Both the position numbers and the translations under genes were made by a program. From a virus: a stretch of 64,000 nt of DNA. The notes under the pieces were generated by a model, which saw only the letters and a program-made list of their open reading frames with translations, was not told where the DNA came from and searched no databases. Shown in pieces: positions 2,113 through 58,625 of this stretch. The DNA lies in IMG/VR virus record IMGVR_UViG_3300037248_000024, positions 34,051 to 98,050 of that record; one strand, 5' to 3'. Every line of letters starts with the position of its first letter. The first letter of the stretch is position 1.

Positions 2113-4212
2113 TCAGAAAGTGACTTTGAGTGTGCGAGAGAACGCCCCCTTGACGCGGGCGATGACGTGGTTTCGTTGCGTTGACGAAAAGCCGAGGCCC
2201 GAGAGTTGGTTCACGGTCTCGTCCGTCCGCATCTTCGCGCCGACCATTTCCAGAACCTTGCGGTGTTGGTCGAGATCGGCGCGGAGAAACTCATTGTAGA
2301 AACCGCGCGCCGTGCCGTCGTTCTGGCAACCATCCAGCATGAAGAAATAGTGCTTGTTTCCGACGCCATGACCGTCCCAATGGTTCGGAGAAAGCATGGC
2401 GACGGTCACGCGGTGGAAGGCTTCGGTGTCGATGGACCAGACCTTGCGCGATACCGTGGTCATCGGGAGTGGACTGATTACGGTCAGGTTTCCGTTCTTG
2501 TAGTGAAGTTCCGCCACCACGACGCGTTCGCCTTGCCGCAACGCCTTGGGATAGGCGAAGCGATGAACTGACCCCTTCCAGTCAATCTCCGCCTCGAAAC
2601 CAACATCGGCGGTTTCTATCTTGGCGTATTGGTGGACGAACAGATTGTAAGTTCCTTCCGCCATACGATGCGCGGAGCCATAGAAGATATTCTCGACTGG
2701 TTCGCGCGTGCCGCGCCCAGGCGAACCACCACCAGCATTCATGTCCACGTCAAGTTGGCCACCGAGGCGAGATGGGCCTTTGTTCGCAAAGTGGATTTCG
2801 TTTCGGTCCGGCTCGACCATGTGAAAATCCAGGTCATCGAAATTCGACCACGCCAACCGGCAACACAGATCGCCCGACACATTGCCTCCGGCCTTCTTCA
2901 CGCGCTCCCGAATGGAATCCGCGAAGTCGCCGTTATAGGACCACGAAAAGCGGTTGTCCCATTTGAACAACGCTGCGGCCGACGCGTCGGCTGGCGCGAT
3001 CAGAGACACCAGATTGCCGACGTGACGATTCTCCACCATGACTTCAATCGATTCCGCCTTCGGAACGACATCCCCCAAAAACTTCTCAATGCCGATCTCT
3101 TCGACTTTATCGAAGGTCTTGGGCTTAACCGATGCCGTCGCGGCGAGGTCATCGAACACGCCGCCGCCTGACATCGCCTTTCTGGCGTTGCGATCCGCGA
3201 ACAGGATGTTGTTCACCGTGATATCGGTCAGGCGCGCGTAGCGGCGTTCCAACGCGGAAGTCAGGCCGAGTTCCGCGACAGTCGCTTTGGCGCGCTCGAT
3301 CATCGCCTTGGTGACAAGCGCGGTGGGACGCTTGTAATTCGCGGGCGCGACCATCGCCTCGAACTTCCGAACGGCACCTTCCATATCTTCGCCAGCGGAA
3401 AAGTCGATCAGCAACTGGCCGATGGATGTGTTTCGGATTTTGGAGACCGAGGCCGGGAGTTCCCCGATTTTCAGCCACACGAAATTGTCGCGATCTTCCG
3501 CCGCCAGCCTGTCGAAGGCGATCTTTTCCTGGCGGAACGTCGTCACGGCATGGCGATGTTCCTCGCCGCGATAGAGTGAGTTCTGGCCGATCAGTTCGAG
3601 AACGGTATCGGCGGCGTCCATCGTCAGTTCGGTGAGTGAACGCAACAGGACATCATGGGCCGCTTTCGAGTCAGACAGGCGTGGACCAATATCCTTTCCC
3701 GCGCATACTCGGCTGTTCGGAAGCGTGACGAAGAAATGCTCCCACGCCTTCACGACACCATCGGTGTCCTCGAAATTCTTGTCGGTCCCGACCTTGGCTT
3801 CGGTGTGCAGGAAACGGTTCTCGATGGCGCGTGCCTTGACCAGATCGCACATCGCCGTTGCTACGGCGTCATAGGTCGGATTGCCCGTGTAGATGTCCCA
3901 GATTGAGGTTAGTTTGCCGTCAATGATGGCGACCATATCCCCAATGGCGCGCACGAACTGACGGCAGCACGAACAGTCGTGCTCGGCGCGCTGGCGCATG
4001 ATCGGGTTGGTGCCGGGCGGGAAACTGGTGAGGTAGGTTGTCCAGAGCGCGTCTTTCTCAACTCCGGTGCGGAACAATTCGTACGTGGACATGAACCCAA
4101 ACTGAGCGGCGACGGCGGTTTTGATTTGGTGGAAGCCGGGATGATCCGGAATGGTATTCGCCAGCGTTTCAGCTTTCGCGGCGACGGCGCGACGGCCAAC
4201 GTGAGAGATCAT
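2113..4212 (-). CDS. 699-aa conserved phage protein with HDCSCC motif and YfaP/DUF2135-like domain
   Basis: Long ORF; EHDCSCCRQF; DLDFH...LDVDMNAGG...PVENIF; start moved to 4212 because the longer ORF overlaps the tRNA. Confidence 0.8.
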   Translation of the reverse strand: MISHVGRRAVAAKAETLANTIPDHPGFHQIKTAVAAQFGFMSTYELFRTGVEKDALWTTYLTSFPPGTNPIMRQRAEHDCSCCRQFVRAIGDMVAIIDGKLTSIWDIYTGNPTYDAVATAMCDLVKARAIENRFLHTEAKVGTDKNFEDTDGVVKAWEHFFVTLPNSRVCAGKDIGPRLSDSKAAHDVLLRSLTELTMDAADTVLELIGQNSLYRGEEHRHAVTTFRQEKIAFDRLAAEDRDNFVWLKIGELPASVSKIRNTSIGQLLIDFSAGEDMEGAVRKFEAMVAPANYKRPTALVTKAMIERAKATVAELGLTSALERRYARLTDITVNNILFADRNARKAMSGGGVFDDLAATASVKPKTFDKVEEIGIEKFLGDVVPKAESIEVMVENRHVGNLVSLIAPADASAAALFKWDNRFSWSYNGDFADSIRERVKKAGGNVSGDLCCRLAWSNFDDLDFHMVEPDRNEIHFANKGPSRLGGQLDVDMNAGGGSPGRGTREPVENIFYGSAHRMAEGTYNLFVHQYAKIETADVGFEAEIDWKGSVHRFAYPKALRQGERVVVAELHYKNGNLTVISPLPMTTVSRKVWSIDTEAFHRVTVAMLSPNHWDGHGVGNKHYFFMLDGCQNDGTARGFYNEFLRADLDQHRKVLEMVGAKMRTDETVNQLSGLGFSSTQRNHVIARVKGAFSRTLKVTF

Positions 4213-4973: not shown

Positions 4974-6002
4974 CTACGGACGATAACCAAGAATGTCAGC
5001 CAAATCCGCGCGGGCGCGTGACACGCGGCTTTTCATTGTTCCCACGGGAACACCAACCTTTTCCGCCATGTCCTCATAGGACATTGACGATACACCGATC
5101 ATCAGAAGCGCCTGACGATGTTCAGGACTTAATTTAGCCATGGCGGCTTTCAGGTCCAGAAATTCCATCCGGCTTTCTTGCGCGGGAGCGACTTTAACCG
5201 CCATCGCGTGAACGTCGTCAACGTCCTCGACCTCGCGCCCGCTTTTTCGAAAGTCGCCGTAATATAGGTTACGAAGAATAGTCATCAGCCATGCGATCAT
5301 GTTCGATCCGGCCTGAAATGACTCGGCATTCGCCCAGGCTCTCGCTATCGTATCTTGCACCAGATCGTCAGCACGAGATGAATTCCGGCAGAGCGACATA
5401 GCGAAATTCCGTAGACGCGGCATAAGGGACAACATTTCATTTTGGAATTCCGCCGGAACAGTTGGCGCGATAACAATCTCTTTGGTGGGGTTAGCCAACG
5501 CGAGACGTGCAACGGTGGCCTTATTTAGCGTCCCCCTTTTACGGCCAGCGATTCCAGTCCGGCGCAACACCCCCCGGAAATCGGACGGCCTATATAAATG
5601 AAGGAAAGCGGCGCGCGACTGAACTTTTGATGCTGTTATGTCCGAGCGACTAAACGTCAGATTGATCTTATCCGCGATTAAAGCCGGTAAAATTCCAGCG
5701 ACCCACCCCTCATGTAGGGTCGCATCCATCTCGGCTGTCCATACCTTGCGCCATGTCGAGAGGAATTCCGCCACCCTCGGCATCGTTGCCTTGCGATGCT
5801 GGCAACTTCCTTTGTGTCCCGCCGGTCGTCCACAAGGGCACGGCGGTCGCGCGACTGCCATCATGTATTTGCGGCATGTCGTCCAGTTGATGCCCGTCCT
5901 GACTGATGCCCGATGGTAGGTGACGCCATCCGAGGCTAGGCCACGGAGAATGGCGCGCGCGTCTTCTGCCAGCGGTATTCGTCTGCCTCCTAGCGTGCTC
6001 AT
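4974..6002 (-). CDS. ECF sigma factor (EcfG/sigmaT-like core) with long N-terminal HTH, Zn-knuckle and GcrA-like extension
   Basis: LMPRLRNFAMSLCRNSSRADDLVQDT...AWLMTILRNLYY (region 2) and SYEDMAEKVGVPVGTMKSRVSRAR (region 4). Confidence 0.9.
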   Translation of the reverse strand: MSTLGGRRIPLAEDARAILRGLASDGVTYHRASVRTGINWTTCRKYMMAVARPPCPCGRPAGHKGSCQHRKATMPRVAEFLSTWRKVWTAEMDATLHEGWVAGILPALIADKINLTFSRSDITASKVQSRAAFLHLYRPSDFRGVLRRTGIAGRKRGTLNKATVARLALANPTKEIVIAPTVPAEFQNEMLSLMPRLRNFAMSLCRNSSRADDLVQDTIARAWANAESFQAGSNMIAWLMTILRNLYYGDFRKSGREVEDVDDVHAMAVKVAPAQESRMEFLDLKAAMAKLSPEHRQALLMIGVSSMSYEDMAEKVGVPVGTMKSRVSRARADLADILGYRP

Positions 6003-16685: not shown

Positions 16686-18170
16686 TCATCCCTCCGTCTC
16701 CGGCCGTCCGGCGTGGGGGCAGTCGATGCGTGTGCAGTGACCATAGTGTTTGCACGCTAATTGATATTTGCAATCCCCCGGCGGCCACGCGGGTTCCGGT
16801 GCCGGGGCGAAGGCGGCAGCCTTACGCTTCAGTGCCTCCCAAGCAAAACGGTCGTCAATCTCTTCGACCTTTATGCAATTCCCGTCTTTTGTCATAGCAA
16901 CAAAAAGGAAGCGTACTTTGTTGATATGATAATGGTTCATTCCGACGATAGACCAGTCTTTAAGTTCCGGATAGTTCCACGGAGCCGTCCACTCCGGCGC
17001 CTTCGCCCCCGCGTCCACCACGTTGCCCAACATAACATCCAGCGCGGAATGCGCGGAGATGTGTCCCGCGTCGACGGCATCAAGATCGCGCAAATGATTC
17101 GTCGTCCACAAATCCCTCTCCTCCCGCGTGAGATCGTGTGGCGCCAAAGCGTGCATGATATCGAACCGTTCGGGTGATTTATATTTCGCGGCGGCGACTC
17201 TGAGCGCGTCGTTTGGTTCTGGTGGATTTTCCAGTGCGGCGATGAAAGCCGCGCTGTCGCGTGGGCTGAGTGTCCAGTTGGTTCCGGTGACACGGGCGGT
17301 GTCGGCGGTCGAACCGAGGTCAGCATGTGGTTGAGCAAACATAGGATCGGGGTTGCGCGGTTCATTCCCCGTCAAGGAGGTCTTGGTGTAATGACACTCT
17401 CCATCCCGCAGGCAATTCGCACGCTGATCACAACCGTCCTGAACACCGCAGCGAGACCAATCTACCGGCAGTTGTTGCTGTACGTGCGCTTTGGTCGAAC
17501 CGAGGTCGCCGGCGAGGGGGTCGTCACCGGGCGTATATCTGGAAGAAATACAACCATCGTAGCCATAGGTCCAACCTTCGCCAGGAATCGCATCTGGACC
17601 GCTCATTCTGAGCCATTGGTCGGGAGTGATTGGTTTCATGCCAGGAATTACCAACGCGTCGAATAAAGCCTGTGTAAATCGAGGGGGCTTCGTGCACTCA
17701 AGATAAGCCGCCGCCGCCTTGTGCGTACTTTGCTGTAAATCGTCATTGATCGCACTCGGCCAAAAGTCCACGCATTCTTGCAGCAGCTTTCTCAGTCGTG
17801 CAATTTCGATCAGGTATAGAGGTGGTTCATAGTTTCGTCCGCGCGCACGGTCGGCGGCGGCGAGGGCTGTTTCTACGGCCGCATGGGGAATGTCAAAATT
17901 AGAGACATGGAAACGGTTTCTTCGCAACCAGATGTAAAGTTCTGACCGCGCCGCCTCAACCGCGTCGCCCGGCACGGCGGACGTGGCGGGTTCGCGGCCG
18001 CGCATGGCGGCTTCACACCGGAGCCAACCGCAAATAAAATTACGCGCGGCGATAGAATTATCGTCCGCCCCTGGATTGAACAGTCGCCAAGCGGCCAACG
18101 CTTTCATTTCTCGCGCGTCACTTGAGCTCGGCGTCATTCGTCCGGTCATGTCCTGGGGTCCTTGTGTCAT
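16686..18170 (-). CDS. 494-aa mosaic protein containing a DUF1778/TacA-like C-terminal segment
   Basis: Patchwork of short modules; LSPRDSAAFIAALENPPEPNDALRVAAAKY. Confidence 0.7.
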   Translation of the reverse strand: MTQGPQDMTGRMTPSSSDAREMKALAAWRLFNPGADDNSIAARNFICGWLRCEAAMRGREPATSAVPGDAVEAARSELYIWLRRNRFHVSNFDIPHAAVETALAAADRARGRNYEPPLYLIEIARLRKLLQECVDFWPSAINDDLQQSTHKAAAAYLECTKPPRFTQALFDALVIPGMKPITPDQWLRMSGPDAIPGEGWTYGYDGCISSRYTPGDDPLAGDLGSTKAHVQQQLPVDWSRCGVQDGCDQRANCLRDGECHYTKTSLTGNEPRNPDPMFAQPHADLGSTADTARVTGTNWTLSPRDSAAFIAALENPPEPNDALRVAAAKYKSPERFDIMHALAPHDLTREERDLWTTNHLRDLDAVDAGHISAHSALDVMLGNVVDAGAKAPEWTAPWNYPELKDWSIVGMNHYHINKVRFLFVAMTKDGNCIKVEEIDDRFAWEALKRKAAAFAPAPEPAWPPGDCKYQLACKHYGHCTRIDCPHAGRPETEG

Positions 18171-19129
18171 GCGGGCATCGCTTTGTGTTCGCGGCCGTCA
18201 AGTAGGGAGCCGGCGAGTTTCTTGCCGAAGTTCTGCATTGGGCTATCGAGACACTTCGGAACCGCCAGTATCGCGGAATCATTGCGGCCACGATCATAGG
18301 GTGCCCAACTTCCCCACTGCTTAAAAAAGTACGGCACACCGTTCGCCGCGCACCAGTCCCGAGTTGCCCGGTGCCAATCAGGATGTGATGGCCGCGCGCC
18401 CGGGCCGCTCTCCCCGCCCGATACCATCCATTTGATGAACTCCCAGCCGGGCCAGTTGATAGAGCCAAGCGCTGGTTCATAGCTGACCCAGGTGTTCCAG
18501 CCCATGCGTGCGAGGGCTTCCAGGTGCGGACGGCGTTCGTCGGCTTCTTGCTGGCGCTCGGCGCTGGCGCCGATCCAGACGTTCGGCATCCCACCATGAA
18601 AGCGATCGATGGTCTCTTCGCGAAAAGGAATTGCTTTGAGAGGGTAAGTCGTTTTCACGCCGCCGCTCGTGCGGCTCTGAAACTCCAACATAATCGCCTG
18701 GGCCATCCCGCCGATGTTGCCCATCATCGTCTTTCGGCTCCGCAGGTAGGCAAGTAGCCGCTCGGGGCGCTTGGTTAAAATCTGATAGCGATGCCAATGG
18801 GCTAGCGTAATGGCGGCGAATATGCGATCCAGCATCTCGTCCGTCACGCCTTCGTGCCCGATGTCCCCGTGCGCGGCCACGAAAATGTCTCGTGGCTCTT
18901 TCCATCGCAGTGGCTGATCGAGCCATTGTTCATTGAACCGAACTTCGCCGGTCCAGATATGGTTGCCGTTGACCTCTCGGGTCAGCCCGGCGCGGGACGA
19001 ATGGTTGCGTAACCGTGTTCCAGCAAGACGCATCGCATAGCAGTTCGTGCAGCCGGGTGATTTGATCGAGCAACCGGTCACGATCTGCCAAGTCGCATCC
19101 GTCCATTCGATATGCGTGCCGTCACCCAT
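18167..19129 (-). CDS. DUF5131 / phage Gp37Gp68 family protein
   Basis: IEWTDATW...GCSIKSPGCTNCYA, ILTKRPER, SYEP, GGESG, FFKQWG. Confidence 0.93.
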   Translation of the reverse strand: MGDGTHIEWTDATWQIVTGCSIKSPGCTNCYAMRLAGTRLRNHSSRAGLTREVNGNHIWTGEVRFNEQWLDQPLRWKEPRDIFVAAHGDIGHEGVTDEMLDRIFAAITLAHWHRYQILTKRPERLLAYLRSRKTMMGNIGGMAQAIMLEFQSRTSGGVKTTYPLKAIPFREETIDRFHGGMPNVWIGASAERQQEADERRPHLEALARMGWNTWVSYEPALGSINWPGWEFIKWMVSGGESGPGARPSHPDWHRATRDWCAANGVPYFFKQWGSWAPYDRGRNDSAILAVPKCLDSPMQNFGKKLAGSLLDGREHKAMPA

Positions 19130-20878: not shown

Positions 20879-22643
20879 CACCCTCCTCCCAACCCAACCA
20901 CGAACGCCCGGACGGCCGCACACAGCAATGCCGCGCACACCGCCAGTCCGATCGCCTTCTGGATCAGTCCACGGCGTCTGGCGGCGCGGCAGGTCTGGCA
21001 ATGGCAGCGCGCCGGGATTTGGAAGGGGAAGGCGCGCGGGGTCATGGCCGTTGCCTGGGACGAAGATGGATGCCGCGGCGTTCGAGGGCGTCGCAGATAG
21101 CTTCTCCAGCGGCGTGAGTCACACCCAAGAAGATGCCCCCGGCTGCTACCAGGATGGCCATCCCAAGCGTTCCAAATAGCATGCATCCGAATACGCCTCT
21201 CGCATTATCCGGCGCGTCCGTGGCAACCACGAACCAATGCCCAAGATAATAGGCGCCATAGAAAAAGGGGACCAAGAGAACCGCAACAACGCCAGCCCCC
21301 ATCACGCTTTCCGTGATCTCGCGGCGCGGTTCGCGGAGGATGTTCGACAGTGACATTGGCTGTTCCTTTGCGGTTATCAGGTGTCGGCGCGAAGGGTCAT
21401 GTCTCATCCTTCCATTCACCGAGTTCGCGGAGGGCGGCTTCGGCGCGGTCGCAGGCGGCGCGGTGGGTCGTTACCGTTTCCTGATTGAGATGACTCGCAG
21501 GCACATTCATGGTTGCCGCCACCTGCGTCTTTAGTTGCTGGAAACCAATCTCCCTTATGCGGTCAGATGCCTCTTTGCCGACCCTGATATAGGACCGGGT
21601 GCCGGGCACCTTACTACTTCCATATCGCCGATCATATTTTGTCTTGTCGCTCAAAATGATTAGATGCGTTGTCACTTGACGAACCGTCTCCTGGTGCGGC
21701 GAAAAGCCAAACAAGAACAGCGTCACAGTATCCCCCTTGGCCACCTCTGCCAACGTCTGCGGCTCTACCCGATCTGTCATCTGACTATCCCTTTCATTCA
21801 GCCAATCACCGCCCAACACACCACCATCCCGGCGCAGGCGATGGCGAGCGAAACGGTAACGGCGTGCATCAGGCGGGGGAGGAAGTCGGTCACGCGGCGC
21901 CGCCGAGATGTTTAGCGCGGTAATGATCGAAGAACGCTTCACACTTCATCGTCGCCTGGAATTTCTTTTTGCAGCCAAGGACGACGCAGGGAAAGAATGT
22001 CTCTGACCGCGAGCGTCTAGTTCTACGCGGAACTTCTGTTTGCGGCTCATCGTCAGGTTGGCAAGCCGAACAGTACATCGGATATCCCGGCCCATCCGCG
22101 CCAGGAAATCCATCTGCTGTGTCGTGTAGAAATTCACCGCAGCCTTGGCACATCGTTCCATCCAGCATCATGTCCGCGATTTCGCCCATCTCATCCTCCC
22201 CAAATCAAAGTCAGCACCACCATCAACAAATCGAACGCCAGCACCGCGATAATCAATGGCCACGCGCGACCGAAGGCGGCGCGGAGGGCGATGGGGTGGA
22301 TCACGACGCCCTCGGATCATTACATTCGCCTGACGGATTACAAGAACGGCAATGCGGGCAGATATAGCCGTGGGCTACGAGCCGATCCCCCTTGCATCGC
22401 GTGGTTTTGGGACCAAAAGCTCTGCATAACCGGAGCATGTCCTGCTCATCAGGATCGAGTGCGTCAACCGGAGGCGATACTGGCTTGTCCCGTGGCACCG
22501 GAGCGGCCCAAGGTTTCCAGAACATGGCGCCTCCCTGAGTTTCCAGAAGCGCTATCCAGGTCGTTCCATCATCGGCAAGGGCCAGCGTGTCATCGCCAGC
22601 CGCCACCAGTTGGATTATCTTGCGTGTCATTGCGTCCTCCCCA

Positions 22644-23573
22644 TCACGCCATGTGCTCCACACAAACCGCGCGCTGAAACTTCCCATCCAGCCGCATTCG
22701 AGGTGCGAAGCCGCCGCACCAATACCAGGACTGCGCGATGATCTGTTGCAACCGATCGACCGGCGCGCGGGTGACCATGGCGACGCCATCCACCAGTTCC
22801 GTTATTGCGTTCGCCGGTCTGAAGTCATCAGCGAGCATCCCGGCGCGATCTGCTTCAACTAGCGCGCCCGCGCCGCAAATATATATTCGCCGCACGAGGC
22901 GCTGACTCAGGGCCGGGTGTTGCTCAACAAACCATTCCGTGGTCGGCAGAAAACGAACGCCCAGGAAATCGTTGACCATTCCCTTGCGGAAGACCTGGTT
23001 GGCCGATGCCGCACCTTGAAACAATGCCCTAAAGTCAGGATCGGAGAACAACTGACGGGCCGAAACCGGGTCCAGGTGGCAGTTAAACGCTCCATCGATT
23101 TGCGGAACACCAGCATTCAAAAGTTCCGCGACGCCATCAAGCAGCGCTTGCATGGTCAGAAGATCGCCAGCCAACAATTCAGCCGTTTCGCTCCGGCGAT
23201 TGACACGGAACACTGAATCCGGGTCGGCTTCGAAGCCGCGGCGCAAGGCGTTCCGAGCGAGTTCGTCGAGGCTTCGCGCGGCCTGTTCGCCGTTGGTGTA
23301 TGCGTTTTGTAAGAACTGGCTGGCGATGCCAACGCGCGCGACCATCATATTGAGGTCGCTGATGGCGGCATAGTGATTGACCTGAAATTCCGCGATTTCG
23401 TTGCCGGCTGTAAAATCACCCTCCTGACCGATACCCACATCCGTATCAATACGATCAGCACAGAGCCGGTAGGATTTACGTGAGTTCAGCGCCTGCTCGA
23501 ACTCGCGCGCCAGGAACCCTTGCTGGATGAGAGGTTGAAGCATGGCGGGGAAGTTTCGGATATTGTCTTTCAT
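22644..23573 (-). CDS. internally shortened major-capsid-like protein (DUF4043 / N4-gp56-like)
   Basis: NFPAMLQPLIQQGFLAREF, GEQAARSLDELARNAL, LDPVSARQLFSDPDF, DRLQQIIAQSWYW, RAVCVEH match capsid proteins I recall from Acetobacteraceae. Confidence 0.75.
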   Translation of the reverse strand: MKDNIRNFPAMLQPLIQQGFLAREFEQALNSRKSYRLCADRIDTDVGIGQEGDFTAGNEIAEFQVNHYAAISDLNMMVARVGIASQFLQNAYTNGEQAARSLDELARNALRRGFEADPDSVFRVNRRSETAELLAGDLLTMQALLDGVAELLNAGVPQIDGAFNCHLDPVSARQLFSDPDFRALFQGAASANQVFRKGMVNDFLGVRFLPTTEWFVEQHPALSQRLVRRIYICGAGALVEADRAGMLADDFRPANAITELVDGVAMVTRAPVDRLQQIIAQSWYWCGGFAPRMRLDGKFQRAVCVEHMA

Positions 23574-23896
23574 CGTGACATTCCTTCCATTCTCAGAAAC
23601 GCCTCTTTCGCCTCATCGGGTGCCTTTGGCAGCAGCCGGACCATCACCGGGCCATTCCTCATATTGCCTGTCATCAATCCATGCAAAGCGGACATTTCGG
23701 TCGTATTCAGGTTGCGCCACTTCTGAATGTCGTAATTTCCGAACAGGATGCCGCGAGGGTCTCCGCGTTGCTTTCGGCCAACACTAAACCCACGAGCGGC
23801 GAGCCACGCCTCCGCTTCTCTGCAAGCGGCAAAATCGCCCGGCTTATCAAATCGGATGCCGTGGCGGAGAAGTTCTGTTTTAACTGAATCGTCCAT
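23570..23896 (-). CDS. conserved phage hypothetical protein
   Basis: AEAWL...GFSVG...PRGI...IQKWRNL. Confidence 0.7.
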   Translation of the reverse strand: MDDSVKTELLRHGIRFDKPGDFAACREAEAWLAARGFSVGRKQRGDPRGILFGNYDIQKWRNLNTTEMSALHGLMTGNMRNGPVMVRLLPKAPDEAKEAFLRMEGMSR

Positions 23897-25034: not shown

Positions 25035-25190
25035 GGTCTGGGCGAGGGCGCAGATTGACATGCTCTGCTCCTTTCGGATTCAGATTTCCGAAGCTCGACA
25101 TCAAGCCGTCCTCCGGATGCTTCCTGCTTCGTCCGGTCCTTTAGGAGGATGTCCGTCCACAGGCTTCAACGCGCTGTCCGCGCGCCGTAG
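25035..25190 (-). ncRNA. putative TnpB omega/reRNA; guide starts TCTGCGCCCTCGCCCAGACC
   Basis: Right-end-derived RNA inferred from known TnpB biology; boundaries approximate. Confidence 0.6.
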
Positions 25191-26341
25191 TATGATGATC
25201 GCCGCGTTGGTGTCGGCATTGGCTTCGTATCCGCATCCTGTGCAGACAAACCGTACCTGATCCTGTCGGCTTCGTGCATCCACCACGCCACATTCAGCGC
25301 ACGTCTGGCTTGTGTATGCGGCTGGAACTTCGATGAGCCTGCCACCACGATCCGCCAGCTTGTAGGCCAGCATGGTCCGGAAACCGCCCCATCCCTGATC
25401 CAGAATGGCACGGTTCAGCGCTGCCTTTTGCCGGACCATCCTGCCCGGTTCGGCTGCGGTGCCTTTCGCAGATGCGGTCATGTTCCGCACCTTCAATGCC
25501 TCCAAAACGACAGCGCCGTGGTTCTTGGCGATGTCAGTTGAAACCTTATGGAGGAAGTTCTTACGGGCGTTCGCCACCCGCATCTGTATCTTCGCCACGC
25601 GGCGGATGGCCTTGCGGCGATTGGACGAACCGCGCTTCTTGCGGCTCAGGTCGCGTTGCGCCTTCCGGAGCGCCCGGAGCGCCTTTTTGCCGCAGTTCAC
25701 CGGGGCGATGTTGACGCCGTTGGACAACGCGGCGAATACAGCGACGCCGCGATCAATTCCGACCGCTGGCAGAGTGGATGGCGCTGGATCAACTATCTTG
25801 TGCTGCCATTGAACGGAGACGCGCCATTGTCCCGCGTGGCGTGAGACAGTCGCGTTGCGAATGTCTCCAACAACGCGGCGCCAACCTCGAAATGAAATCC
25901 ACCCTAGTTTTGGCAGTTTAATACGTCCAGAAGAGTTGCCGGTGCGTTCAATCCTAAAGGCCTCCGGGTGCGGAAACCGAAAGCTATCATTCAACCCCTT
26001 CTTACGCGGCGTTGGGTACCCGGAACGACTCTTCCACCAGTTCTGATAGGCTTTGTTGAGGTCCATCATCACCTGATGCAACGCATCCGCCGGTACATCC
26101 CTAATCCAATCAACTTGCCTTCGAAGCATGGTGACTTCACGGCACTGACTGGCAAAATTGATCCCCCGTCCGGCGCGGCCAAAAGTCCGCCGCTGTTCCA
26201 AGGCGAGGTTGTAGACGAACCGGCACGCACCCGCGAATCGCGCCATTTTCTGCGATTGCTCGGATGTCGGGTAGAGCCGATAGGTGTTGGCCTTGCGAAT
26301 AATCATAGGCGCACCATGCCAGACTCCAATCCGCGATGCAA
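25055..26341 (-). mobile_element. IS200/IS605-family solo tnpB element (IS1341-like), no tnpA
   Basis: tnpB followed by GCCTGTGGA...GAAGCAGGAA, a terminal hairpin TCC-GAAA-GGA, and the end GCATGTCAA; left end not identified. Confidence 0.8.
25101..26306 (-). CDS. tnpB: RNA-guided endonuclease TnpB
   Basis: YRLYPT HTH; RuvC D (GIDRG), E (VLEAL), D (NADTNAA); Zn finger CAECG/CTGCG. Confidence 0.95.
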   Translation of the reverse strand: MIIRKANTYRLYPTSEQSQKMARFAGACRFVYNLALEQRRTFGRAGRGINFASQCREVTMLRRQVDWIRDVPADALHQVMMDLNKAYQNWWKSRSGYPTPRKKGLNDSFRFPHPEAFRIERTGNSSGRIKLPKLGWISFRGWRRVVGDIRNATVSRHAGQWRVSVQWQHKIVDPAPSTLPAVGIDRGVAVFAALSNGVNIAPVNCGKKALRALRKAQRDLSRKKRGSSNRRKAIRRVAKIQMRVANARKNFLHKVSTDIAKNHGAVVLEALKVRNMTASAKGTAAEPGRMVRQKAALNRAILDQGWGGFRTMLAYKLADRGGRLIEVPAAYTSQTCAECGVVDARSRQDQVRFVCTGCGYEANADTNAAIIILRRADSALKPVDGHPPKGPDEAGSIRRTA

Positions 26342-26403
26342 TAGCAAAATCGCACAATCCGCGAAATTATTGCCTTGACCCTCCCAGGAACCTCGTATAG
26401 GAT
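26313..26403. promoter_or_regulatory. divergent promoters with 10-bp direct repeat CAATCCGCGA (26327, 26355)
   Basis: Minus strand: TTGCAT-17-CATGGT-6-ATG(tnpB); plus strand: TTGACC-17-TAGGAT-7-ATG(26411). Confidence 0.7.
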
Positions 26404-52507: not shown

Positions 52508-53020
52508 ATGGCGCGGAAACCAACACCTCAAGTGGTTGAGATTTACGGACTGCTTGATCCGCGAGACGGTAAGCTGCGATATATCGGGAAAGCGAATGAC
52601 GCAGGGAAACGGTTGAAGACTCACGTTTCGGATAGTCGGCGCCGCAATACGGCCGTCTGCAAGTGGATCGCTAAATTGGTCGCGGATAACCTAATTCCCA
52701 AGGTTCTTGTCCTGGAGGCGTGTGATGCCTCTTTGTGGGAATGTCGTGAGCGCGCCTGGATCAGCGAAGCTTACCGAATGGGCGGCGTTCTGCTTAACGT
52801 GGCTCCCGGCGGGGCTGAACCAGTGGAGTTCCCGTACTGGGAGTTTCCATGCGGGCGTCTGATCGACAAAAAGTCTCCCGCTGGGGCGCGAATCAAACGA
52901 GACAAGATTACCGCCAACCGGCGTCTCCGTGACGGGTTGATGTCGCCTATTGACAGATGGATGCTCCGAGAATGCGCCAGAATGGTTCCTGGCATGTTCG
53001 GTGAATGGGCAAATATCTGA
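52508..53020 (+). CDS. GIY-YIG endonuclease
   Basis: IYGLLDPRD...RYIGK...RLKTH...ERAWI...LLNVAPGG. Confidence 0.88.
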   Translation: MARKPTPQVVEIYGLLDPRDGKLRYIGKANDAGKRLKTHVSDSRRRNTAVCKWIAKLVADNLIPKVLVLEACDASLWECRERAWISEAYRMGGVLLNVAPGGAEPVEFPYWEFPCGRLIDKKSPAGARIKRDKITANRRLRDGLMSPIDRWMLRECARMVPGMFGEWANI

Positions 53021-53490
53021 TGGCCGCACCTCCTGCTGCCCAACGAAAGCTGGATCGACTTGGGGCCGATGCGGTGTGTGAGATGATCCTGAACGGCAAG
53101 GCGTATAAGGATATTGCTGAAGCGGCCGGGGTGGCCGTTGGGTCAGTGTTGGCATGGCTGGATGCGGTTCCTGAGCGTTCCGCCCGCGCGCGCGAAGCCC
53201 GTAGAATCATGGCGGCTTACTGGGACCAGTTGGCCGAACAGGAACTCAGGGACGCACCAGCGACGGCTGAGGGCATCGCGAAAGCGCGGGAACTGGCGCA
53301 GCATTTCCGGTGGCGTTCCGCAAAGGTCGATCCGCAGGGGTATGGTGAAAAGGTTGATCTGAATCATCGAGGGGGCATCATGTTTGCAAAAATCCCCTAC
53401 GACCCATCCGCCCTCACGGAAGAGCAGCGCGAAGTGATGCGCGATGTCTTGCTGACGGCGCCGAAGACGATTGAGGGAAAGGCTGAATAA
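53020..53490 (+). CDS. terS: terminase small subunit (Sf6 gp1-like)
   Basis: N-terminal HTH; AREARR; RWRSAKVDPQGYGEK. Confidence 0.85.
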   Translation: MAAPPAAQRKLDRLGADAVCEMILNGKAYKDIAEAAGVAVGSVLAWLDAVPERSARAREARRIMAAYWDQLAEQELRDAPATAEGIAKARELAQHFRWRSAKVDPQGYGEKVDLNHRGGIMFAKIPYDPSALTEEQREVMRDVLLTAPKTIEGKAE

Positions 53491-53826
53491 ATGCACGTGT
53501 TGCGGCTGTTCTTAAAATCCGGCGTTCAGGTCGAGTTATTGTATCGCGGTAAGGATGATGTCCGATCGGCGGTCCATATATTAGAGAGTGATCCGACGCG
53601 CGTGAAACTGAATGACGACTTCGGAAAGTCCCTCGATGTGCTGGTGGCCTCGATCGACGGCTGGCAGCCCTCCGACTATGCCGCCGAACTTGAGGGTGCC
53701 TTAATGGTGGCGCGCGCCAAGCAAGAAGCATCGGACAAGTTCCAACGTGAGATGCAGAAGCGCGGATCGTTGCTTGTGCCTGGGCCGGTGATGCAGCCGC
53801 CCAACGGCGGAATCAGGATCGGCTAA
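53491..53826 (+). CDS. hypothetical protein
   Basis: ORF abutting terS. Confidence 0.65.
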   Translation: MHVLRLFLKSGVQVELLYRGKDDVRSAVHILESDPTRVKLNDDFGKSLDVLVASIDGWQPSDYAAELEGALMVARAKQEASDKFQREMQKRGSLLVPGPVMQPPNGGIRIG

Positions 53827-54040
53827 CATTCTCTCTTCTCTTGTCAAAATCACGGTGAATCCGCGCGTCTAACGCGGTTTGTGGGCTTGTTAGATGGCGG
53901 CGCGCGTCCCTGAGCAGGGTCAGGTCCGCGAGAATCGCTGGATGTTAGCGGTATCTTGTTAGTGTAGGTGAGTGTTACGCGCGCCCGCGCGCCGATTGGC
54001 GCCTTGCTCCCCTGAGATCATTATTATATAAGGCATCGCC

Positions 54041-54256
54041 ATGACGCCAGCGATCCACCTCCGGCTTGATCCTGATCTTCGTGCCGCCGTCGAAGCCGTC
54101 GCCGTGATGGAAGACAGGCCGTTGGTGAATGTGGTGCGGTTGCTGGTCCGGCAGGCGGTCGAGGCGAGACGGGTTGGTGACGGTGTGGCCGCACGCGATC
54201 TGGCGGCGCGATATACGGAAATGCTGGCCATGGAGGATAAGCGGGATGGACGATGA
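54041..54256 (+). CDS. ribbon-helix-helix protein
   Basis: AIHLRLDPDLRAAVE...RPLVNVVRLLV; promoter TTGCTC-17-TATAAG at 54004-54032. Confidence 0.8.
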   Translation: MTPAIHLRLDPDLRAAVEAVAVMEDRPLVNVVRLLVRQAVEARRVGDGVAARDLAARYTEMLAMEDKRDGR

Positions 54257-55397
54257 TCCCTTGAACAACGATGTCTCTACCGAAACCGCGCGGCAGGCGT
54301 TCTGGGATCGTGTGAGGCGCGATGTTGAAGACAAGCGTGGTGCGGTTGGTGATCAGGTAGACGATGGCGTCGCCCTGAACGAGGCGTCGCTCATGGCTGC
54401 GATCCAGGCAATCAGGAACCATCCTGTTTCGGGTGGTGTGCTGCATCCCAACGGCATCGCCCTGACAAGCGCGGCGCATCCCGCCCGGAAAGTCACGCTC
54501 CACGAGCGAGCACAAGCGGAGGCGGCGAAGCGCGGCCTGATCGCTGGTTTGTGGCCGCCACCTGAGTATTTAGCAAAGCCGTACCATTTCCTGGTGGCCG
54601 ATGGTTGCGAACCTGATGTGGTAGAGTGGTGCGGTTCTGCATGGTTACTGACCGGGCACGATGAGTCTGTTGCCCCAGAGACGATGAGCGGCGACGGCTA
54701 CCGCTACCTCGGCCCGGCGGAGTGGAAAGAACCGCGCGCCTCAACTGCCGCGGGTGAGTGGCGCGAGCGTATTGTTGCCGACCTCCGGCGGTCAAATGAC
54801 CCACTTGTCATCGCCGCGGCTGATCGGATTGAGGAGTTGGAGGCCGAAGTCCTCACCGTCCCGCTCACTGGCGTCGCCGCCGAAACCATCCGTAAACTGC
54901 GTCACCTCCTTGCCCAGTCGGATGACGAACTGCAGGGGCTGGCGGCGCAAAACGCGCGGGCACAGCAGCGAACCAAACTCCTTGATGACTGCCGCCAACT
55001 TTGCTGGCCGTGGCCCCTCCCGCCCGATATGAAAGAACGCGGCATTATCTTGCCCGCGACAGACTACGCGCACGCACTCCGGCAGGTGACGGAACTGGCG
55101 GAGGAGGTCACGAAACTGACCAACGCCAATCACACGCTGATGGCCGTGATATCAGCGAAGACGACCGCCGAACCCGGCAATCACGACTACATCGGCCCGC
55201 TCGACGCCGACCGTAAGCCGGTAGCCGATCCTGTCCATGAACGGTTCCACGGTTCAGTTGGCGATGTCATCGCGGGTCGCGTGCTGCCAGAAGCGCGCCG
55301 CCAGATGCAGGAAGCGTTGAAGGTCGCGCCGAAAGAGAAACCATCATTTCCGGTGGATGCGAAGCCAGGCGATCCGAGACGGATGGGGTTGGGGTGA
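54246..55397 (+). CDS. hypothetical coiled-coil mosaic protein
   Basis: Long ORF; AAADRIEELEAE motif. Confidence 0.65.
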   Translation: MDDDPLNNDVSTETARQAFWDRVRRDVEDKRGAVGDQVDDGVALNEASLMAAIQAIRNHPVSGGVLHPNGIALTSAAHPARKVTLHERAQAEAAKRGLIAGLWPPPEYLAKPYHFLVADGCEPDVVEWCGSAWLLTGHDESVAPETMSGDGYRYLGPAEWKEPRASTAAGEWRERIVADLRRSNDPLVIAAADRIEELEAEVLTVPLTGVAAETIRKLRHLLAQSDDELQGLAAQNARAQQRTKLLDDCRQLCWPWPLPPDMKERGIILPATDYAHALRQVTELAEEVTKLTNANHTLMAVISAKTTAEPGNHDYIGPLDADRKPVADPVHERFHGSVGDVIAGRVLPEARRQMQEALKVAPKEKPSFPVDAKPGDPRRMGLG

Positions 55398-56167
55398 GCG
55401 ATCTCCTGGTGGAGTGTCACGAAGTCAGCCACGAATATCTGACTGACATCCTCGCGGTTCGCCTTTCCCGCGAAACCACCGTCTCTGCCAGGGCGTGGCT
55501 TCTGATGTCCGCCGCGTTTCAGATCACGCGCCCGGTCGCCGCTGTTCCGTTGCCCATTGTCAGGATTTCAACATGAGCGAAACCCAACTCACCGCCCCAC
55601 CCCCTCCCGCCGAACCCTACACTGGCCGCCCCATTGGCGCCGACACCTGCAACGCGCTGATCACCGAGGCGCCACTGACGGTGGCGGAATTACACAAGCT
55701 GCGGGAGCATTTCGCCGCGCTGGCCGAGATGTGTGTCATTTCCGGCCCTCGGTTTGGCGCCTCGCGGCAGGCCGCTGTCGATTTTCATAACCGGTGTGTG
55801 CGCCGGTTGCGCGGGATCAGGGATGAGGTGAAGCGGCGGGCGATGGAAGAAGAAGATGGGTTGATGGAGATAAAGTGATGTCCTGGTCTGATGGAGTGCG
55901 ACAACGTGATGCCGATATGGGTTATGACCCGTGGGTTGCCGCCAGCAATACGGAAACCGCCGTCATTTGCCAGCCGCACCAGGACAGCGCCGTCAGAGAG
56001 TGCTGGCCGGGTTGCCGTATTTTTCATCCAGGGCAGGCGAAGGTAGGCCATCGGTTCGAGCGGCTGATCGTGTTGTGGGCGCCGCGCGTTCCACATGAAG
56101 GCGAGTGGCTTGAAGACTTCCGGACAGGGTTGAAGCCGGGCGGCAAAGTAATTTACCTCGTCTGACC

Positions 56168-57820
56168 ATGCCTGACTGGACCCCCGAACAACTCGAAGCC
56201 GCCCGGATATTCGAGGCTGAGGCGTCGCTGCATTTTTTTGTCAGGTTGATGTGGAGCGCCGTCGAACCAAAACGAAAATTCGTGGACGGTTGGCTGCTCC
56301 GGGCGATGTGCGAGCATCTGGAAGCGACGGCGGATGGGAGGATCAAGAGACTCATTATCAACGTGCCCCCAGGCAGCATGAAGAGTCTCCTAACGAATGT
56401 TTTTTTTCCTGCCTGGCTGTGGGGGCCAAAGAACCGCCCGGAAAGCCGTTTCTTTACAGCGTCTTACTCCGCGTCGCTGACCGAGCGCGACAACGAGCGG
56501 ATGCGAATGCTGGTGGCCTCGCCGCAGTATCAAAGCCGCTGGGGACATCGGTTCATCGCCGGTGACAGCAAGATCAAATTCACTAACAATAAGACGGGAT
56601 GGAAGCTGGCGTCATCGGTGGAAGGGGTGGGCACTGGCGAGCGCGGCGATTTCGTTTTGATCGACGATCCCAATGACATCCAGAAGACGGAAAGCCCGGT
56701 GACGCGGGAACGGGTGCGGCGCTGGCTCAATGAGGTTTTGCCGACACGACTGAACGACCCCGAGAAATCTGCCATCATTCTGATTCAGCAGCGCACCCAC
56801 CGCGAAGATGCCACTGGCACGATGCTGGAACAGGCCCGAGGGGGCGACGACTGGGTCTATTTCATGGTGCCGATGGAGTACGACCCGGAGTGGTGTTGCG
56901 GTGAGACGGCGATCGGGTGGGTTGACCCCCGCATTGAGCGCGCGCGGGAAGATGCCTATGAGGCGATGGTCCTGGCCCGGCGCCAGGGATTGCGCGAGGC
57001 TGATGTCGCGGAGATCGCCGGACGGGCGGGGCGGGGGCAACTCTGCTGGCCCGCGCGATTCCCGCGCGATGTCGTGGATAGTTTGAAGTTGCGCCTGGGA
57101 AGTTATGCGTGGGCCGGACAGATGATGCAGAATCCGGTCCCACGCGGCGGTGCGATCTTCAAAGAAGATTGGTGGAAACTCTACGGGCGATTAGACGAGG
57201 ACCCGGTCGCGGCGAAGCTGCGGTTTCCCGCGTTTCACCACGTCGCCGCGTTCATGGACTGCGCTCTGACCGATAAGACGGAGAACGATCCATCCGCTCT
57301 GGTGGTTCTGGGAACCTGGACTGTTCCGCAAACAGGTCAGCAGGCCGTCATGCTGATCAATGCCTGGTCTGACAGGCTGCGGATCAACCCCTTGGTGCGG
57401 TTGGTGGCGGATAAGTGCGACAAGTACCGCGTGGACACGCTGGTCATCGAAAACAAGGCCAATGGGCACTCGGTCGAGCAGGAGATACGCCGCCTCTACG
57501 CCAACTCGGAATGGTCGGTGCAGTTCAGCGATCCAACGGGACTGGGTGAGAAGGTTGCTCGCGCGCATTCCGTGACCCATCTGTTCGAGGAAGGGCTGAT
57601 CTGGCATCCCAACACGGATTGGGCGCAGATGGTCATCGAACAGATGTGCTCGTTTCCCAAGGCCGCGCATGACGATCTGGTGGACTGTATGACGGCCGGC
57701 CTGCGATATTTCCGCGAACGGGGAATGCTGCTAAGGAGACCTGAGGCGCGCGCCGCCGAACAATCCCTGGCATCCCTCGCCCGCGGCCAGGTCATCGCGA
57801 GGCCGTTGTATGATTCGTGA
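56168..57820 (+). CDS. terL: terminase large subunit
   Basis: INVPPGSMKS, LIDDP, IQQR, MQNPVP, DCA, IENKANG, FPKAAHDDLVD. Confidence 0.96.
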   Translation: MPDWTPEQLEAARIFEAEASLHFFVRLMWSAVEPKRKFVDGWLLRAMCEHLEATADGRIKRLIINVPPGSMKSLLTNVFFPAWLWGPKNRPESRFFTASYSASLTERDNERMRMLVASPQYQSRWGHRFIAGDSKIKFTNNKTGWKLASSVEGVGTGERGDFVLIDDPNDIQKTESPVTRERVRRWLNEVLPTRLNDPEKSAIILIQQRTHREDATGTMLEQARGGDDWVYFMVPMEYDPEWCCGETAIGWVDPRIERAREDAYEAMVLARRQGLREADVAEIAGRAGRGQLCWPARFPRDVVDSLKLRLGSYAWAGQMMQNPVPRGGAIFKEDWWKLYGRLDEDPVAAKLRFPAFHHVAAFMDCALTDKTENDPSALVVLGTWTVPQTGQQAVMLINAWSDRLRINPLVRLVADKCDKYRVDTLVIENKANGHSVEQEIRRLYANSEWSVQFSDPTGLGEKVARAHSVTHLFEEGLIWHPNTDWAQMVIEQMCSFPKAAHDDLVDCMTAGLRYFRERGMLLRRPEARAAEQSLASLARGQVIARPLYDS

Positions 57821-57949
57821 CCTGTTTTCCCAGAGATACCGTCCCGGCATGTACGGTGTGGAAGCGACGATGGGGTGTATCGGCGTGCGCTGGTGGGTGC
57901 CATTTTCCGTGCGCCGCGCCGCGCGCCGCCGGGAGGAGATGGGTGTCTC

Positions 57950-58420
57950 ATGACAGACTTCGCGGACATGACCGAGACCGAACTTGACGAAAATATAGCC
58001 TCTCTGAAAATACAGATAAGCGCTTACAAGATACAGTTTTCGGACGGCATTCTTCCCGGCGATGACGATAAGAACTGGTATCGCCGGGCTTGCACCGCGC
58101 TCGCTCATGCGGTGAATATCCGGTACGGCGGCAGGGATGGGTCGCGCCGTCAAATCGAAATCGGAAGGATGGACAGAGCCCTACGAGATATACGGCAGAA
58201 ATTCGAAGCGGCGACAAATCGGCTTGGTCAGGTTCGGCAGGCAGCGGGAAATGCCGAGAAGAACGCGGCCTTCGTCGCCGCCGCGCGTCGTGAACTACCT
58301 CACCCGCGTTGCCACGCCATCATGGACGCCGCAATGAAGATACTGATGGAAAAGGATAAGGCGGTGACGCTGAGCCAGGAGACCGTCGAGACCTTGGCGC
58401 TATTGGCCGAAGACTGTTGA
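57950..58420 (+). CDS. hypothetical protein
   Basis: GGAGGAG upstream; helical ORF. Confidence 0.55.
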   Translation: MTDFADMTETELDENIASLKIQISAYKIQFSDGILPGDDDKNWYRRACTALAHAVNIRYGGRDGSRRQIEIGRMDRALRDIRQKFEAATNRLGQVRQAAGNAEKNAAFVAAARRELPHPRCHAIMDAAMKILMEKDKAVTLSQETVETLALLAEDC

Positions 58421-58625
58421 CTTTCCGCTATAACCCTCCGTAAATCCTGCTAAGGTTGCCATTCGCGCCGTCTGGCAGTCCCCACCCAGCATCCGACCAG
58501 ACGCACGCCGCGCGAGGGGAGAGGCCAGAACCGGATACGCGGTTGAGCGATCGGACGTTCAAAATCGGCGCGGCATTTCTGTTGGTCCTGGCGGTTCTGA
58601 TCTGCCTGTCCGGTTATGTCGCGCG

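Follow-up and report, generated by a model that had tools for sequence, protein, structure and literature searches.

A large, apparently virulent soil phage carries, far from its head module, an intact gene for a 309-aa homolog of a major capsid protein (hereafter mini-MCP), which descends from the 440-aa coat of a myovirus-like element resident in Acetobacteraceae chromosomes. Relative to these coats the mini-MCP lacks three segments, each absent in frame, while the core of the predicted HK97 fold is complete, and related short proteins form a clade of their own. We propose that the mini-MCP may interfere with capsid assembly of the resident element, a reading that we regard as a serious possibility short of an even chance.

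An orphan capsid gene in a leftward accessory operon

The window, the whole stretch of DNA analyzed, comprises 64,000 nucleotides and covers bases 34051-98050 of a viral genome that is complete at 98,050 bp and has terminal repeats of 127 bp. The mini-MCP gene is part of a densely packed leftward operon of small genes, whose start lies near a TnpB gene lacking TnpA (25101-26357) and a divergent gene for a Cro-like HTH protein. The ATG of the mini-MCP overlaps the TGA of a 108-aa ORF (ATGA), with GGAAGGA as a Shine-Dalgarno-like run ahead of it. The ORF list and this overlap confirm what an earlier, sequence-only reading had described, namely an intact 309-aa ORF coupled to its upstream gene. 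Its description as an orphan antisense to the phage head module is likewise borne out, the distances amounting to about 29 kb to TerS, about 35 kb to the portal gene and about 43 kb to the gene for the phage's own MCP. The features referred to below are as follows (window positions unless stated otherwise).

22644-23573, minus strand: mini-MCP gene, intact ORF of 309 aa, identified by PHROG 1357 ('major head protein', matching aa 62-290, E=7.7e-21), an AF2 model and Foldseek
23570-23896, minus strand: upstream 108-aa ORF, ATGA-coupled to the mini-MCP gene, no family match
22301-22630, minus strand: small ORF that follows downstream in the leftward operon, its start 13 nt past the mini-MCP stop, with GGAGG ahead
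23439-23573, minus strand: codons of the N-arm (aa 1-45) with the motif NFPxxLQPxIxQGFxxREF, present even in the most divergent short forms
23403-23408, minus strand: junction 1, codons A56/G57, where the distal 28 aa of the E-loop are absent and a short hairpin (aa 51-64) stays
23226-23327, minus strand: spine helix (aa 83-116), among the best-conserved parts
23226-23243, minus strand: linker RRGFEA (aa 111-116), the last six codons of the spine helix, standing for a beta-rich insertion domain of about 96 aa
22695-22700, minus strand: junction 3, codons R292/M293, where 11 aa of a C-terminal surface loop are absent
53005-60923, plus strand: packaging/head module, with TerS (53005-53490), TerL (56168-57820) and portal (58626-60923)
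genome positions 2698-3609, beyond the window end: the phage's own MCP, 303 aa, PHROG 371 ('major head protein')

A different MCP had been expected beyond the 64 kb, and the 303-aa protein of the head module is such a protein, showing no detectable sequence similarity to the mini-MCP (BLASTP E=12). It aligns end to end with the annotated MCP of a Manatee Spring Caudoviricetes genome (64%) and with the MCPs of Pelagibacter phage HTVC023P and Roseobacter phages CRP-901/902 (about 37%), and no relative of solved structure was detectable by sequence. An HNH/endonuclease VII gene directly follows it outside the window (genome 3697-4761; L002:3697-4758). The 98-kb genome holds no second copy of the mini-MCP type. 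A related 97-kb phage, with a portal 40% identical, retains the structural MCP near the portal at 59% identity and has no mini-MCP homolog; since a relative with the same type of MCP lacks it, the mini-MCP is an accessory gene. Neither a tyrosine nor a serine recombinase was found in the phage genome, and the phage is therefore probably virulent. A role as an exclusion gene expressed in lysogens was considered and dropped, given that the phage has no integrase or resolvase.

The same contig was present in two soil metagenome runs, and the mini-MCP gene showed no differences, although the assembly may derive from either run. A record found in both runs touches window positions 17865 and 22758 with 29 other letters between them; it is most likely a contig of another organism sharing the conserved coat motif and not evidence of a deletion variant.

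Several other genes on the minus strand of the window were characterized. The TnpB/IS605 OrfB gene (25101-26357), present without tnpA, encodes Cas12f1-like TNB, OrfB_IS605 and HTH domains, and diverged TnpB copies from other genomes occur in the same soil metagenomes. It was tried as a link to a host and yielded none, its Acetobacteraceae homologs being at most 65% identical. On the leftward arm that also holds the mini-MCP, a 494-aa ORF with a TacA-antitoxin-like segment (16686-18170; PF08681, E=8.6e-6) is followed by a gene for a DUF5131 protein (18167-19129). Finally, a 342-aa protein (4974-6002) consists of a long N-terminal extension and a C-terminal half representing a complete ECF-type sigma factor (regions 2 and 4).

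Predicted fold and the three missing segments

The AF2 model of the mini-MCP, computed from an 82-sequence alignment, has a mean pLDDT of 92.9 and a pTM of 0.89. Foldseek matched it with probability 1.0 to the solved capsids of Pan3, LME-1, N4 and Ralstonia GP4, and also to the Mmp1 encapsulin, while the top BFVD match was an N4-gp56 family major capsid protein (E=2.3e-16). On the strength of the model the HK97 fold, for which the sequence-only reading had asked for a prediction, is not in doubt. That reading had also named a match to the DUF4043/N4-gp56-type coats of Acetobacteraceae, and this holds in part: 440-aa coats of Acetobacteraceae are indeed the nearest relatives, but Pfam-A gave no family, DUF4043 included, for the 309-aa form at E<=1 or for a 441-aa long form at E<=0.01. 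The N4-gp56 affiliation is thus suggested by the predicted fold together with the NCBI naming of homologs.

A protein search returned more than 2600 homologs of the mini-MCP at E<=1e-3, comprising a few short proteins of 292-310 aa and then hundreds of exactly 440-442 aa. The latter are about 60% identical to the mini-MCP across about 62% of the query, and some of them, named DUF4043 by NCBI, are encoded on Acetobacteraceae contigs of up to 1.1 Mb. Alignment of the short with the 440-aa forms confirmed three in-frame gaps at the places named beforehand: 28 aa are absent between A56 and G57, after VGIG; about 96 aa after ARNAL are replaced in frame by the linker RRGFEA; and 11 aa are absent between R292 and M293, before FQRAV.

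These gaps, as well as the interfaces, were placed on the models from secondary-structure strings only. In the model of a 440-aa member (pLDDT 87.8), gap 1 falls on residues 56-83, which form the distal E-loop tip between strands 49-55 and 84-90, gap 2 on a beta-rich insertion domain (about 141-240) that directly follows the spine helix (109-140), and gap 3 lies in a C-terminal coil (411-432). In the model of the mini-MCP the spine helix (83-116) runs directly into the following strand. Replacement of the E-loop, as proposed earlier, therefore needs qualification, since the 28-aa tip is gone but a tight 14-residue hairpin (strands 51-56/59-64) is retained in the model.

The insertion domain of the long coats (profile positions about 140-240) weakly matches a domain in two very large ORFs of 1325 and 641 aa (G008:C1:3247616-3247894, E=2.8e-9; G007:C1154:19461-19862, E=2.9e-5). 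These ORFs share a contig with the coat gene, at a distance of 14-21 kb, and probably encode tail fibers.

A derived clade of short forms

With a threshold of E<=1e-3, an exhaustive profile-free search recovered 350 clusters (50% identity level). The alignment of almost every long form to the query is broken into two or three separate stretches, which fits the presence of extra segments in these proteins, and further short forms, 258-314 aa in length and 33-58% identical, align as a single stretch. In total, 15 short forms, each a cluster at the 50% level, cover 33-86% identity with open frames and common core motifs. They are rare metagenomic singletons on contigs of up to 95 kb, those closest to the mini-MCP (P0002 and P0004) being encoded on contigs of 88 and 95 kb, and none was found in any cultured phage of the collection searched. 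One metagenomic short form (P0123, 425 aa) has a 109-aa N-terminal extension, either a fusion with an upstream gene or the result of a mis-called start.

In a tree of 84 sequences the 15 short forms, together with two intermediates, form one clade (SH-aLRT 95), which is nested among the slowly evolving 440-aa proteins and in which the short forms sit on much longer branches. Both intermediates (P0124, 400 aa; P0150, 415 aa) have a shortened E-loop, lacking the tip only, and retain the insertion domain. As the more distant long forms in the tree are all of 412-506 aa (59 of 59) and the short clade is nested among the 440-aa proteins, the long form is, by this phylogeny, ancestral and the short forms are derived. 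The edges of the deletions differ between lineages, with 19-46 aa missing from the E-loop, about 96 to well over 100 aa from the insertion domain and 4-17 aa from the C-terminal loop, which indicates that trimming was stepwise and possibly repeated. The foreign origin suggested in the sequence-only reading is supported by this placement, the clade being nested among coats of Acetobacteraceae elements and unrelated to the MCP of the phage that carries the gene.

Mean conservation within the short clade is 0.60 in the N-arm, 0.67 in the spine helix, 0.64 in the A-domain and 0.63 in aa 261-291, compared with 0.33-0.38 in the three junction remnants. In the spine helix the mini-MCP (P0001) is 79% identical to the 440-aa forms, and over aa 261-291 the value is 84%. 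That reading frames stay open and cores conserved across such a wide divergence argues for purifying selection. The earlier preference for selection over decay is supported by the diversity of the clade, whose short forms are intact and share conserved core motifs, with variable remnants at the junctions. GC3 of the mini-MCP gene (0.65) is like that of the phage's other genes, while that of a chromosomal coat gene is 0.89, an amelioration that points to long residence in phages.

A second genomic context was provided by a 13-kb IMG/VR phage contig (L094) encoding a 277-aa short form with 47% amino-acid identity to the mini-MCP. This gene is also ATGA-coupled, overlapping the end of an unrelated 355-aa ORF by 4 nt, and its neighbors encode a helicase, a primase/helicase, a replication protein, a methyltransferase, RuvC and a RecE-like exonuclease. 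Only the capsid homolog matches between this contig and the phage described here, the coupled upstream genes being unrelated. Locus searches of viral and metagenome collections with P0001, P0002, P0135 and P0150 returned nothing, and searches with P0121 or an alignment of short forms were dominated by long forms, leaving L094 as the only new context. Short homologs serving as the normal MCP would have spoken against the sequence-only reading; in both contexts (two of two) the short form is instead an orphan outside any head module.

The long form in Acetobacteraceae genomes

The 440-aa coat belongs to a myovirus-like head-tail-lysis cluster with the order TerL-portal-scaffold-coat-sheath-baseplate. 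In Rhodopila globiformis DSM 161 the genes are arranged as TerL, portal, a small protein, the 440-aa coat, head-completion genes, sheath, a tube-like protein and baseplate V and J, and Komagataeibacter phage phiKX1 shows the same order plus TerS. The long form is annotated as 'phage coat protein' in Komagataeibacter phages phiKX1/2, and Ralstonia phages Raharianne, Albius and Hyacinthe have a coat of the same type. Mitomycin C-inducible myovirus-like phages of acetic acid bacteria are described, with mention of phiKX1, in the available text of one report (PMC8566455).

A scan of a genome collection located relatives of the long form in 475 stretches of species-representative genomes. Of 151 Acetobacteraceae species genomes sampled, 80 have the coat gene, in most cases as a single intact copy of 440 aa with 70-90% identity. 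The resident cluster measures about 26-32 kb from TerL to lysozyme, and no TerS was found between the host genes and TerL. In one complete chromosome (L019/L227/L228) it spans TerL to a GH108 lysozyme and is flanked by genes for shikimate dehydrogenase and a TPR protein, with no integrase among the scanned ORFs. One type of upstream flank is common to 27 of 50 species loci and a second type to 12 of 50, the 50 loci being those among L004-L083 with 10 kb on both sides (L030 was also taken in for the description of the cluster). These shared flanks suggest that a domesticated GTA-like cluster has been passed on vertically, although there are also true prophages of the type, and the resident cluster may thus be a candidate GTA-like element of myovirus type. 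Contigs of a Sphagnum 'core virome' align to Acetobacteraceae genomes and have been discussed in terms of cryptic prophages and GTAs (PMC12142844); they may represent the same element. Apart from a distant TerL match and a sigma-factor match involving a flanking ORF, the mini-MCP is the only gene common to the phage and the element loci.

Possible interference with capsid assembly

In HK97-type shells the N-arm, the spine helix/P-domain and the A-domain contact capsomer neighbors and assembly partners. These are the parts that the mini-MCP has kept, while the protruding tip of the E-loop, the insertion domain and the C-terminal loop, assumed here to lock capsomers together and to stabilize the shell, have been lost. 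Such a pattern is the design that we would expect of a subunit able to join its parent's assembly yet unable to finish the shell. According to the mechanism that we propose, an ancestor of the phage took the coat gene from a myovirus-like element in an Acetobacteraceae chromosome, and the captured coat was afterwards stripped of its surface parts. Expressed from the leftward accessory operon during infection (a timing suggested by operon position alone), the mini-MCP would either join the coat subunits of the resident element or soak up their scaffold or portal. Dead-end or unstable shells would result, and an induced prophage or GTA-like element could then neither package DNA nor compete. Binding, the dominant-negative effect and the time of expression are what we infer, and the one indication that the host would carry the target element is the phylogenetic affinity of the mini-MCP. 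The idea of a poison subunit draws on the parts kept and lost, a weak co-folding signal and the precedent of Ccm (see below).

Co-folding of the 440-aa form with the mini-MCP scored 0.36 against 0.00 for the best control, a pass that may reflect memory, as HK97 capsomers have been solved, and that at this level is more often wrong than right unless the guess is already likely. Of 80 solved complexes, 58 attained the mark used, as did 2 of 110 mismatched pairs, and the range at 0.60 or under contained only seven of the 80 solved complexes and both passing mismatches. In the co-folding runs at least 35% of contacts agree, with a partner pLDDT of at least 75.

Some considerations weigh against interference. 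The lysis genes of the element would be unaffected by a block in head assembly, and the benefit to the phage is thus not obvious. The more divergent short forms are only 30-40% identical to the presumed target, which could indicate drift to another function. Moreover, many genuine MCPs are of 270-330 aa, and self-assembly might still be within reach of an HK97 protein of 309 aa that has a short E-loop hairpin. Interference with the resident element nevertheless remains our preferred reading. Its extension, that lytic Acetobacteraceae phages carry an undescribed family of mini-capsid proteins, taken from the coat gene of a vertically inherited GTA-like cluster of their hosts, trimmed by degrees and acting as dominant negatives on head assembly of the element, is put forward tentatively, and we lean somewhat against it.

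Alternative functions of the mini-MCP

The mini-MCP could have been exapted for a purpose apart from the element's capsid, for example as the subunit of a small encapsulin-like shell or compartment that assembles by itself, as a minor or vertex protein of the phage's own capsid in the manner of T4 gp24, or as a scaffold for another process. We consider this unlikely. A complete and confidently predicted fold would suit such a role, as would a size in the range of minimal MCPs and encapsulins, and to the Foldseek match with the Mmp1 encapsulin can be added the divergence of short forms that are only 33-40% identical to the query; however, the mini-MCP has no Pfam encapsulin match, and indeed no Pfam match at all. 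Translational coupling to a small upstream gene recalls cargo-shell pairs, yet the coupled genes are unrelated in this phage and in L094. A virion component would also sit oddly with the distance from the head module and with the related phage, which has the same structural MCP and no mini-MCP, and retention of the N-arm motif of the 440-aa coats likewise speaks against a function detached from them.

It is rather improbable that the mini-MCP acts as a decoy or sponge, binding a host or prophage factor that recognizes this type of capsid, such as a sensor of the CapRel or Lit kind or one of the element's regulators or chaperones, and so dampening an immune or abortive reaction. That bacterial immunity can be triggered by capsid proteins is established (PMC9712102). 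The fast-evolving, long-branched clade would fit an arms race, and the accessory operon also includes the TacA-antitoxin-like segment. Known sensors, however, detect the MCP of the invader itself, whereas the mini-MCP mimics the resident element, and a decoy is less attractive for the very reason that the mini-MCP is unlike the phage's own MCP in sequence. The deletions, moreover, have removed precisely the parts that a capsid exposes most at its surface, and we know of no sensor gene in this setting. A decoy for capsid sensors is thus less likely than interference with assembly.

That the gene is a functionless passenger, a captured capsid gene in decay, is very improbable: short forms are rare metagenomic singletons with long branches and lost segments, but every deletion is in frame, at least 15 clusters (50% level) stay open across 33-86% identity with the same core motifs, composition has been ameliorated to that of the phage, the predicted fold is intact, and two soil metagenome runs have the contig in identical form here, though the assembly may itself come from either of them.

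Implications of the proposed capsid interference

Known conflicts over capsid assembly, involving P4 Sid, CpmAB and Ccm of SaPIs and TcaP of PLE, have a parasite manipulating its helper. If interference by the mini-MCP is real, the arrow would be reversed, with an infecting phage disarming a resident prophage or GTA-like element by means of a trimmed copy of the element's own coat, and this would be the first infecting phage to use a capsid mimic against a host-resident element. The use of a capsid homolog as a weapon is already known from Ccm; should the function hold, the carrier, the target and the architecture would be new. Our literature search revealed no described family of trimmed orphan capsid homologs in phages.

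The family moreover constitutes a natural deletion series, in which the tip of the E-loop, then the insertion domain and then the C-terminal loop are removed. It shows which parts of an HK97 coat are removable with the core retained and would be useful for research on capsid assembly and for the design of assembly inhibitors. The analysis also draws attention to a very widespread and positionally conserved head-tail-lysis cluster of Acetobacteraceae, which may be an unrecognized GTA-like system.

Comparison with known systems

The closest parallel to the proposed interference by the mini-MCP is Ccm of the cos-type satellite SaPIbov5, a horizontally acquired capsid homolog that co-assembles with the coat of the helper and forms no shells alone (Hawkins et al. 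2021, PMC8569155). In both cases a capsid homolog is encoded on an element other than the source of the coat, the mini-MCP resembling the coat of the Acetobacteraceae element. Mutations of phi12 that escape Ccm map to a patch of the spine helix/P-domain sheet touching the N-arm of the neighboring subunit (PMC8569155), and the same regions, spine helix/P-domain and N-arm, are the best conserved in the mini-MCP family. Ccm, however, is borne by a satellite, which uses it to redirect the size of the helper capsid to its own ends; it shares 24% identity with its target and has kept the E-loop (PMC8569155). The mini-MCP, by contrast, is carried by a large phage that appears to be virulent and would be aimed at a prophage or GTA-like element resident in the host; it is about 60% identical to the presumed target family, has lost three surface elements, and its function as proposed here is one that we infer.

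Conceptually similar are Tab and Tai, where a phage-derived element blocks assembly of a competitor's virions; these are prophage or host defenses and not weapons of an infecting phage, and no capsid mimic is described in the available text of the two reports (PMC10884400, PMC11364771).

With phiKX1, phiKX2 and the other 440-aa coats the mini-MCP has lineage, HK97 fold and N-arm motif in common, and it is about 41% identical to the coat of phiKX1. The coats of phiKX1/2 and of the chromosomal clusters are full-length and encoded between scaffold and head-completion genes, whereas the mini-MCP is a trimmed orphan in an accessory operon. In T4 the vertex protein gp24, a virion component, is a paralog of the phage's own MCP, and the two genes are adjacent. 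Like gp24, the mini-MCP is a second HK97-fold protein in a phage besides its MCP, but it differs in its foreign ancestry and in its location 43 kb from the gene for the phage's own MCP.
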